The translations under genes and the position numbers were made by a program. A stretch of DNA of 43,605 nucleotides from a virus. The stretch spans positions 1 through 43,605 of IMG/VR virus record IMGVR_UViG_3300025162_000081; one strand, given 5' to 3'. Every line of letters starts with the position of its first letter. Position 1 is the first letter of the stretch. The notes beneath the pieces were generated by a model. That model saw only the letters and a list, made by a program, of their open reading frames with translations, made no database searches and had not been told where the DNA came from. This document shows, piece after piece, positions 42,589 to 42,823 of this stretch.

Positions 42589-42794
42589 AAAATCTAAACT
42601 TAGAAGTAATTATAAGAAAAATTGCAACTTTAATTGTATTTATTATATTACTTTTTAGTCCATTTACAATAATTGAAATTATTTTATATTCTCTAAGATA
42701 TATATTATATAACATATCATTTCCAAAACAACCATATTGTTTTGAATTATTCTCAAAAATGTGGTAAATATTTGTGTAATTCAATTATATTCCT

Positions 42795-42802
42795 TATCTT
42801 TG
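42795..42802 (+). promoter_or_regulatory. -7 promoter box TATCTTTG within CCTTATCTTTGTACT, with TTTG about 20 nt upstream
   Basis: 22 nt upstream of ATG 42824. Confidence 0.4.
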
Positions 42803-42823
42803 TACTATTAAAATAGAGATATT

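Follow-up and report, generated by a model that had tools for sequence, protein, structure and literature searches.

IMG/VR virus record IMGVR_UViG_3300025162_000081 is a 43.6-kb stretch of DNA (positions 1 to 43,605; GC content 27%), which is referred to as the window in the following. It carries approximately 89 genes, most of them small, that are arranged as 22 alternating strand blocks. Among same-strand neighbors, 41 of the 67 pairs overlap or abut, and 18 show a 4-nt ATGA-type overlap, which is typical of prokaryotic operon packing. According to Pfam, the window encodes "eukaryote-like" proteins (MVP shoulder and Vault_3 domains, RCC1, and ankyrin) together with cargo of large phages (a T4 gp30.3 family member, RNA ligase, NADAR, and metallophosphatase). 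Pfam also identifies three GIY-YIG/NUMOD endonucleases, an HNH remnant and TnpB; radical SAM, GGDEF, NT5C, cold-shock, and cobalamin adenosyltransferase proteins; and SIS, HAD, three kinds of glycosyltransferase (GT9, GT8, and GT2) and an endolysin-type glucosaminidase. Here, we focus on 16 copies of a short box, TAHHTTTG, located ahead of these genes, and on a second box, TATATA(A/T/G). The TAHHTTTG boxes are real, and their position and strand take them far beyond what chance would give.

The site singled out in the initial annotation, at 42791 to 42805, is part of a 15-mer, CCTTATCTTTGTACT, that is indeed present in exactly two copies, at 42029–42043 and 42792–42806; the position given there for the latter was off by one nucleotide. 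Both copies are on the plus strand and contain the box TATCTTTG, at 42795–42802 (29 nt before the ATG at 42824, with a transcription start site [TSS] predicted at ~42807) and at 42032–42039 (74 nt before the ATG at 42106). The same octamer is located on the plus strand at 19438–19445 and 9716–9723, in each case 30 nt before an ATG (19468 and 9746, respectively). On the minus strand, it is present at 33161–33168 (31 nt before the ATG at 33137, and overlapping the 3′ end of the preceding open reading frame [ORF]), 32551–32558 (33 nt before the ATG at 32525), and 15311–15318 (31 nt before the ATG at 15287). The variant TATATTTG is on the plus strand throughout. It precedes the ATG at 40475 by 33 nt (40442–40449), a GIY-YIG gene starting at 37972 by 62 nt (37910–37917), the ATG at 34079 by 63 nt (34016–34023), the gp30.3 homologue starting at 20387 by 31 nt (20356–20363), and the NADAR gene starting at 18404 by 42 nt (18362–18369). 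It also lies ahead of a tRNA-like gene (5846–5853), for which the predicted TSS, 5 nt after the G of the box, is position 5858, i.e., the first base of the acceptor stem. The variant TACTTTTG, likewise on the plus strand, occurs at 15519–15526 (31 nt before the ATG at 15550, with a TTG ending at position −33), at 8925–8932 (33 nt before a 36-codon ORF, 8958–9068), and at 23649–23656, ahead of the HNH remnant and an operon with radical-SAM, GGDEF, and NT5C genes. The box-to-ATG distance thus ranges from 29 to 74 nt, with a sharp peak at 29 to 33 nt. One further match, TAAATTTG at 12752, was left out of the set: its surroundings look coding by eye, although the one frame translated is closed.

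All the boxes previously listed ahead of ORF starts were recovered (at 8925, 9716, 15519, 18362, 20356, 34016, 37910, 40442, 42032, and 42795, and at 5846 for the tRNA-like gene), and four sites had been overlooked: 15311–15318, 32551–32558, and 33161–33168 on the minus strand and 19438–19445 on the plus strand. The ORF said to start at 23689 does not exist. Instead, the ATG at 23679 opens a frame of just 17 codons, behind which lies the frameshifted C-terminal remnant (LCEKCHKLFH) of a degraded HNH endonuclease (23679–23862, plus strand). This remnant abuts the radical-SAM gene on its upstream side and sits between the 23649 promoter and the operon that this promoter presumably drives.

The bare octamer TAnnTTTG is not enriched in the window as a whole, where 93 copies are observed and 87.3 ± 8.6 are expected; the earlier estimate of some 40 chance copies per strand is therefore correct. 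Hence, the enrichment check had to use position and orientation. These overall counts, together with the low GC content of the intergenic DNA (14–25%), are what one would expect if the boxes were functionless chance products of AT-rich sequence. Sense boxes at −80 to −20 of start codons, however, number 18, compared with 5.4 ± 2.4 in whole-window dinucleotide shuffles (maximum 13 in 300), and 12 of the 18 fall in the single bin from −40 to −21. Local shuffles, in which each of the 30 upstream non-coding segments (2589 nt) was shuffled alone to keep its local AT-richness, give 3.15 ± 1.75 sense boxes; 17 are observed, a number that none of 1000 shuffles reached. The same segments have five antisense boxes, which is not significant. 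Moreover, all seven copies of TATCTTTG in the window, both strands included, are promoter-positioned (31-fold enrichment, p = 6e-8). The positional enrichment over a shuffled AT-rich background that the initial annotation had asked for is thus present. Sites of the sigma-70 type are not enriched in the window relative to shuffles (134 versus 140 ± 13 and 153 versus 154 ± 13). Chance is already refuted by the orientation and position of the boxes; the sharp peak at −29 to −33, the lack of G at the n positions, and the conservation of boxes in relatives (see below) also argue against it, and we give it practically no credence.

The consensus TAnnTTTG is textbook knowledge for Bacteroidota. In Flavobacterium johnsoniae promoters, T-12, A-11, T-8, T-7, T-6, and G-5 are nearly invariant and G hardly ever occurs at −10 and −9, which yields the revised form TAHHTTTG; transcription starts 4 to 5 nt past this −7 element, the −33 motif is barely visible, and AT-rich motifs are located near −18 and −28 (Baez et al., PMC6847099). 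All 16 sites in the window are of the revised form. That each of the six positions is present in 16 of 16 sites is circular, since the pattern was used for finding the sites; the independent evidence is the enrichment by position and orientation. The two n positions are TC, TA, CT, or AA, and G occurs in 0 of 17 promoter-positioned boxes versus 22 of 76 boxes elsewhere (Fisher p = 0.0096). Alignment of the 16 sites reveals T-tracts at −35 to −26 and at −19 to −15 (in 10 to 14 of the sites) and AA at −24/−23. Downstream of the box, there is a strong preference for T-4 and A-3 (TTTGTA), in keeping with the earlier remark that the box is followed by TA. An A-rich block at +8 to +13 is positioned 7 to 12 nt before the AUG at the common spacing of 29 to 33 nt. 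The predicted leaders are 17 to 21 nt long at ten sites and 30 to 62 nt long at the remainder.

In F. johnsoniae, leaders average 33 nt, Shine–Dalgarno sequences are lacking, and A at −3, −6, −12, and −13 favors initiation (PMC6847099). The start regions in the window also lack a Shine–Dalgarno signal, as had been proposed: a GGAG, GAGG, or AGGA at −20 to −4 precedes 4 of 89 genes, equal to the background of 4.9% in random 17-nt windows, and the frequency of G at −15 to −5 is merely 6 to 13%. The frequency of A, which is 0.37 genome-wide, rises to 0.60 at −3, 0.60 at −11, 0.64 at −12, and 0.49 at −13.

Relatives in IMG/VR, with MVP genes 91, 80, and 72% identical on contigs of 56 to 501 kb, keep the boxes. 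In the closest relative, the cassette around 42032 is ~95% identical over ~70 nt, compared with ~81% for the flanking genes, and the box corresponding to 40442 reads TATCTTTG, a change at an n position alone (TATA to TATC). The 19438 box is kept in the relative L028 amid substitutions in the flanks. Upstream of the orthologue of the gene at 34079, a box is present in a relative but shifted to −34 in sequence that otherwise cannot be aligned, and in the 501-kb relative, TATCTTTG precedes the gp30.3 ATG by 29 nt in a wholly different upstream context. The enrichment test replicates in close relatives: over 56 kb, 13 sense boxes are observed versus 2.3 ± 1.4 expected (0 of 500 shuffles), with the antisense count not significant. 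Eleven gp30.3 orthologues on phage contigs of 32 to 45% GC (ten of them at 40–45%), which we take to be enterobacterial T4-like phages, lack a box close to the start codon; in one, TAATTTTG lies 78 nt upstream, far outside that range, and several show a GAGG, GGAG, or AAGGA Shine–Dalgarno sequence instead. In a 40-kb stretch of Prevotella phage Lak-B8, the box TATCTTTGTA heads three genes.

Could the box recur because a single short, mobile promoter cassette was duplicated, and not because selection acted separately at each site? A run of 17 nucleotides, TTCCTTATCTTTGTACT, is identical at two sites, and the 42032 cassette is, as noted, better conserved than its surroundings, with a differing sequence downstream. 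Outside the box, though, the other 14 sites share compositional features only. The boxes have three different n-pairs, and in relatives they are found at an unchanged distance within flanks that are unrelated. Duplication as the general explanation therefore appears improbable, and duplicated cassettes would still be promoters.

The window also belongs, by gene content, with huge phages. The MVP gene (34998–37409, plus strand) matches only three GenBank phage records, LR756500, LR756501, and LR756503 (49–53% identical), which are huge-phage genomes of metagenomic origin, 462 and 735 kb long; in all, MVP homologues with 42 to 91% identity are found on many huge-phage contigs. We take the 735-kb MVP-bearing records to be among the huge phages of Al-Shayeb et al., who predicted that all of their genomes above 634 kb replicate in Bacteroidetes and found that they cluster with the Lak phages in the Mahaphage clade (PMC7162821). 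The best GenBank phage hits of the RNA ligase are 15 Prevotella Lak megaphage records (58% identity), and the recorded host of Lak-B8 is Prevotella. Cellular homologues of the cobalamin adenosyltransferase are 64 to 72% identical (72% for Lentimicrobium), and every named one is from Bacteroidota (Lentimicrobium, Lentimicrobiaceae, Bacteroidales, Sphingobacteriia, and "Bacteroidetes bacterium"). For the glucosaminidase, the best hits are Flavobacterium phage endolysins (48 and 42% identity). Megablast of 23.6 kb of the window against GenBank phages gave no match, nor did the protein encoded by 42824–43582 have a match among GenBank phages. The four gene-based lines (MVP, RNA ligase, adenosyltransferase, and glucosaminidase), which do not depend on the motif, agree with the promoter grammar and the missing Shine–Dalgarno sequences on the Bacteroidota-type expression and host that the initial annotation had proposed. 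The phylum stands; within it, the host is likely to belong to the Bacteroidales or Lentimicrobiaceae and not to the Flavobacteriia suggested for comparison.

The MVP, RCC1, and ankyrin genes raise the alternative of a eukaryotic giant virus, in which AT-rich boxes such as TATATA and TATATTTG would be early or late promoters or TATA-like elements; the missing Shine–Dalgarno sequences and the proximity of TATATA to start codons would fit this as well. Yet MVP homologues reside on phage genomes of 200 to 735 kb. The gp30.3 family member, the Lak-type RNA ligase, and the phage-type glucosaminidase point to a phage, and the eighteen 4-nt gene overlaps and bidirectional Rho-independent terminators (see below) point the same way. 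So do the SIS, HAD, and GT9 genes of lipopolysaccharide (LPS)-heptose type and the auxiliary metabolic gene that is 72% identical to Lentimicrobium proteins. A giant-virus origin is, for practical purposes, excluded.

The most enriched word upstream of genes is TATATA (6.5-fold; 14-fold for TTATATAT) and not the sigma-A box. Within 45 nt of an ATG, TATATA is present in 11 leading-gene regions, compared with 2.5 ± 1.5 in local shuffles (0 of 1000). The TATATA(A/T/G) boxes lie 6 to 36 nt before start codons, mostly on the minus strand. On this strand, TATATATA is found at 5798–5805 (29 nt before the RCC1 ATG at 5776), 12589–12596 (26 nt before the ATG at 12570), 18271–18278 (36 nt before the TnpB ATG at 18242), and 33970–33977 (with 8 nt to the ATG at 33969 or 14 nt to the in-frame ATG that follows it). 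On the plus strand, it occurs at 30573–30580 (23 nt before the ATG at 30596) and 37960–37967 (12 nt before the ATG at 37972). The remaining boxes are on the minus strand: TATATATT at 4500–4507 (12 nt before the sulfotransferase ATG at 4495), TATATAAT at 9681–9688 (10 nt before the ATG at 9678) and at 40406–40413 (22 nt before the ATG at 40391 of the endolysin-like glucosaminidase), and TATATAGA at 30495–30502 (10 nt before the ATG at 30492). TATATA matches at 18360–18367 and 34014 were rejected as members of this class, as they are merely the 5′ part of TATATATTTG.

Thirty leading genes divide into 13 with the sigma-A box only, nine with TATATA only, two with both, and six with neither, i.e., near mutual exclusion (p = 0.02). 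Of the two genes counted under both, one is spurious owing to TATATATTTG; the gene at 37972 is thus the sole carrier of both box types. The classes also differ by strand: 11 sigma-A and one TATATA on the plus strand, two and eight on the minus strand (Fisher p = 0.0015). Genes headed by TATATA include the endolysin-like gene, the block of RCC1, sulfotransferase, and glycosyltransferase genes, and TnpB. Thus, the single-box scheme of the initial annotation holds for the sigma-A box and is incomplete in that about one third of the transcription units, as counted by leading genes, carry the TATATA-type signal it had overlooked. In the region upstream of MVP (34904–34997), no clean copy of the sigma-A box or of TATATA is present; relatives with 72% identity have TATATAAT 44 to 45 nt before the MVP ATG, and the window reads AATATAAAAT at roughly that distance.

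The TATATA motif recurs in close relatives and in Lak-B8. In LR756500 (200–250 kb) and LR756501 (1–50 kb), ATATATA[AG] is the top upstream word, 20- to 40-fold enriched (p down to 1e-17) and 12 to 58 nt before starts. Since it is the top word in these distant huge-phage relatives too, TATATA(A/T) probably represents a phage-specific promoter class that resembles T4 late promoters. Phage T4 uses host-sigma promoters early and, late, gp55/gp33-dependent promoters with a single element, TATAAATA. The T4-related jumbo phages, Lak-B8 included, are without an RNA polymerase of their own and encode sigma factors and a gp33 orthologue (Iyer et al., PMC7824862), which makes a T4-like program the economical reading. 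A more specific proposal is that TATATA(A/T/G) is a promoter of a gp55-like late program common to Bacteroidota megaphages of the Lak/Mahaphage type, that it serves the strand opposite the host-sigma units, and that many of its mRNAs are leaderless or nearly so, in a host lineage that does without Shine–Dalgarno pairing anyway; we regard this as tentative, with the odds slightly against it. For the boxes 6 to 12 nt from the AUG in particular, the mRNAs might be leaderless.

Collectively, these data lead to the following model. The window would be a piece of a huge tailed phage, kin to the Lak/Mahaphage megaphages, with a host in the Bacteroidota, probably Bacteroidales or Lentimicrobiaceae-like. 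The sixteen TA(T/C)(A/C/T)TTTG boxes would be −7 elements for RNA polymerase carrying a Bacteroidota-type primary sigma factor. In the 5′ to 3′ direction, the proposed cassette opens with a T-tract at −35 to −26, accompanied at some sites by a TTG that ends at −33, and continues with AA at −24/−23, a T-tract at −19 to −15, TAHHTTTG at −12 to −5, and TA. Transcription would start ~5 nt past the G and give a leader, usually of 17 to 21 nt, with an A-rich block ~7 to 12 nt before the AUG, on which ribosomes would initiate without Shine–Dalgarno pairing, as in Bacteroidota. The host-sigma units, mostly on the plus strand, would encode accessory, early-type functions. Units with TATATA(A/T), mostly on the minus strand and including the endolysin-like gene, would be read after a phage-encoded specificity switch of the T4 gp55 type. 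For the core of this model, i.e., a huge tailed Lak/Mahaphage-related phage in a Bacteroidota host, 16 −7 elements read by a Bacteroidota-type primary sigma factor, and a second TATATA class, we estimate a probability of roughly 85%.

An alternative is that a phage-encoded RpoD-like sigma factor, which copies the host specificity, reads the TAHHTTTG boxes; they would then constitute a phage-controlled class that is not host-dependent. T4-related jumbo phages encode sigma factors, some of which are near cellular RpoD (PMC7824862), and some huge phages encode their own sigma-70 (PMC7162821). Within the window there is no sigma gene, and the motif fits the host consensus in every tested detail, which makes the host sigma factor the simpler reading. 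We therefore consider a phage-encoded factor unlikely, albeit the least unlikely of the alternatives; if true, it would still imply a Bacteroidota host.

A number of observations weigh against the model with host-read −7 elements. The −33 element is present in just 6 of 16 sites (G at −33, with a TTG ending at −33 or −32), which is consistent with the weak published element but not diagnostic. At position −6 of start codons, T (0.51) exceeds A (0.42), and A, which favors initiation in F. johnsoniae, shows no enrichment. Six leading genes, MVP among them, have neither box. The box signal varies within the clade and from one genome region to another: enrichment in Lak-B8 is marginal (5 versus 1.7; 17 of 500 shuffles reach 5), four 50-kb samples of LR756500 and LR756501 have little or no peak near −30, and one stretch of a distant relative uses TTTGTTATTATATTTA, with a final A in place of G. 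On the basis of those four samples, we dropped the expected clade-wide use of the box. For the TATATA class, T4-like geometry would put the TSS of boxes 6 to 12 nt from the ATG at or beyond the start codon, and within the window there is no sigma or gp33 gene and no gp55 is visible. Finally, the TSSs, the sigma factor that reads each class, and the timing of expression are deduced from sequence rather than from transcripts.

A related observation concerns positions 1 to 50000 of LR756500.1, the 462-kb relative. Here, a recurrent cassette, (C)TTTGTTATTATATTTATA, lies 31 to 54 nt before many small tandem genes, e.g., upstream of 4449, 5643, 7252, and 7653. It is similar to the −7 box except for its last base, an A in place of the normally invariant G.

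Transcription units in the window also have recognizable ends. The built-in terminator scan detects no enrichment in the window (3 versus 4.1 and 8 versus 4.6), but it loses hairpins in which A/T-tract flanks extend the stem and consume the T-run, such as the one at 31674–31697. We therefore wrote a perfect-stem scan that tolerates such flanks as a replacement, and it detects 13 strand-sites versus 2.4 ± 1.7, so that the GC-cored intrinsic terminators of the initial annotation were a fair call. Six intergenic loci are involved. Five are bidirectional, and four lie exactly at convergent junctions: 14552–14576 (A-tract, GC-cored hairpin, and T-tract), 20868–20891, 31674–31697 (after the cold-shock gene), and 39300–39321. 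The fifth bidirectional hairpin, at 37864–37887, is located ahead of the promoter at 37910, and the terminator at 34886–34903 (plus strand) is positioned between the gene at 34480–34863 and the MVP gene.

What had been called "the tRNA" is not a canonical tRNA gene: ARAGORN makes no call, Rfam at gathering thresholds accepts nothing in the window, and the Rfam score is 16.9 bits versus a threshold of 29. The gene at 5858–6050 (plus strand) is tRNA-Arg(UCG)-like, with a normal acceptor stem, D-arm, and T-arm and a 6-nt anticodon loop (TTCGAA). An insertion of ~115 nt takes the place of the variable loop, before the canonical T-arm. Its D-arm is identical to that of tRNA-Arg genes in tRNA arrays on metagenome contigs, one of them 752 kb in length; a search with the D-arm pattern hit nothing but ordinary tRNA-Arg genes in huge-phage tRNA arrays. 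If the 5846 box is used as predicted, the transcript would start at the first base of the acceptor stem and would offer no 5′ leader to RNase P. Directly downstream, 6051–6690 (presumably plus strand) is an ORF-free region of ~640 nt with a GC content of 37 to 43%, compared with 14 to 25% for the other intergenic DNA, which has all three kinds of stop in all six frames and a fold z-score of just −2.1. Rfam gives no hit at E ≤ 10, and no homologue of the GC-rich 6050–6690 was found in 87 fetched loci, in IMG/VR (exact 20-mer), or in JGI metagenomes (T-arm). The region is a candidate for a large noncoding RNA, and the 5846 promoter may drive its co-transcription. Phage tRNAs also have GOLLD and ROOL RNAs as neighbors.

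Two other gene groups deserve mention. At 41424–42588 (plus strand) and 2159–3754 (minus strand), there are genes for a GmhA-like SIS isomerase, a HAD phosphatase-like protein, and a GT9–GT8 fusion with a heptosyltransferase as its GT9 part, and sulfotransferase and GT2 genes accompany them; the SIS, HAD, and GT9–GT8 genes suggest a phage that carries part of the LPS-heptose pathway. At 27754–29699 (minus strand), adjacent genes have similar N-termini (MITKFKVYE... and MITNFKIFEKY...), and one is fused to ankyrin repeats; they look like a small paralogous family.

The practical value of these results lies in host assignment: a promoter grammar specific to a phylum, read from raw sequence, places an uncultivated phage fragment in the Bacteroidota despite its eukaryote-like vault protein, RCC1, and ankyrin genes, and the gene-based lines agree. 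The 16 compact promoter–leader cassettes of ~60 bp could be tried as expression parts for Bacteroidota, and the two-class, strand-segregated layout provides a first sketch of the transcription program of a Lak-like megaphage. In the literature examined, we found no promoter-motif analysis of Lak-like megaphages.

How does the window compare with known systems? In Bacteroides fragilis phage Bf12P1, −7 and −33 TTTG elements were used as the promoter criterion (PMC13139388). As in Bf12P1, units in the window are headed by signals of the host −7/−33 type; in Bf12P1 all temporal classes were given such promoters, whereas here approximately one third of the leading genes carry a TATATA-type box. Promoters of the Bacteroidota type are thus not new in kind, since host-consensus promoters were already predicted on Bacteroides phages (PMC13139388), and the result is sound but fairly ordinary; what it adds is the TATATA class and the strand-segregated layout. 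Relative to the Bacteroidota primary-sigma promoter (−33 TTTG/−7 TAnnTTTG) as known from F. johnsoniae (PMC6847099), the likenesses include the six invariant positions, the exclusion of G from the n positions, the T/A-rich tracts one and two helical turns upstream, and the weak −33 element. Predicted leaders mostly above 10 nt, initiation regions rich in A, and the lack of Shine–Dalgarno sequences are further likenesses. The boxes in the window differ in residing on a phage genome, in their strong T-4/A-3 preference, and in start regions with no enrichment of A at −6; their leaders, as far as predicted TSSs tell, are shorter and more uniform (mostly 17–21 nt versus a mean of 33 nt).

The T4 program is matched by two promoter classes that are largely segregated by strand, with a one-element AT-rich box in the class that includes the lysin. 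The box TATATA(A/T/G) is related but not identical to TATAAATA of T4, and several copies are just 6 to 12 nt from the ATG. The clade itself is T4-related and encodes sigma factors and gp33 (PMC7824862). A further comparison is with the Lak megaphages of Prevotella and the Mahaphage clade (PMC7162821). The reported TAG recoding of Lak phages leaves no sign in the window, where no read-through signal was found, and the TAHHTTTG box is rare in the regions sampled from LR756500 and LR756501. The RNA ligase (58% identical), MVP (49–53% identical), a GC content of ~24 to 31%, and the predicted host phylum, Bacteroidota, are shared, and both TATCTTTGTA and TATATA boxes are also located upstream of Lak-B8 genes.

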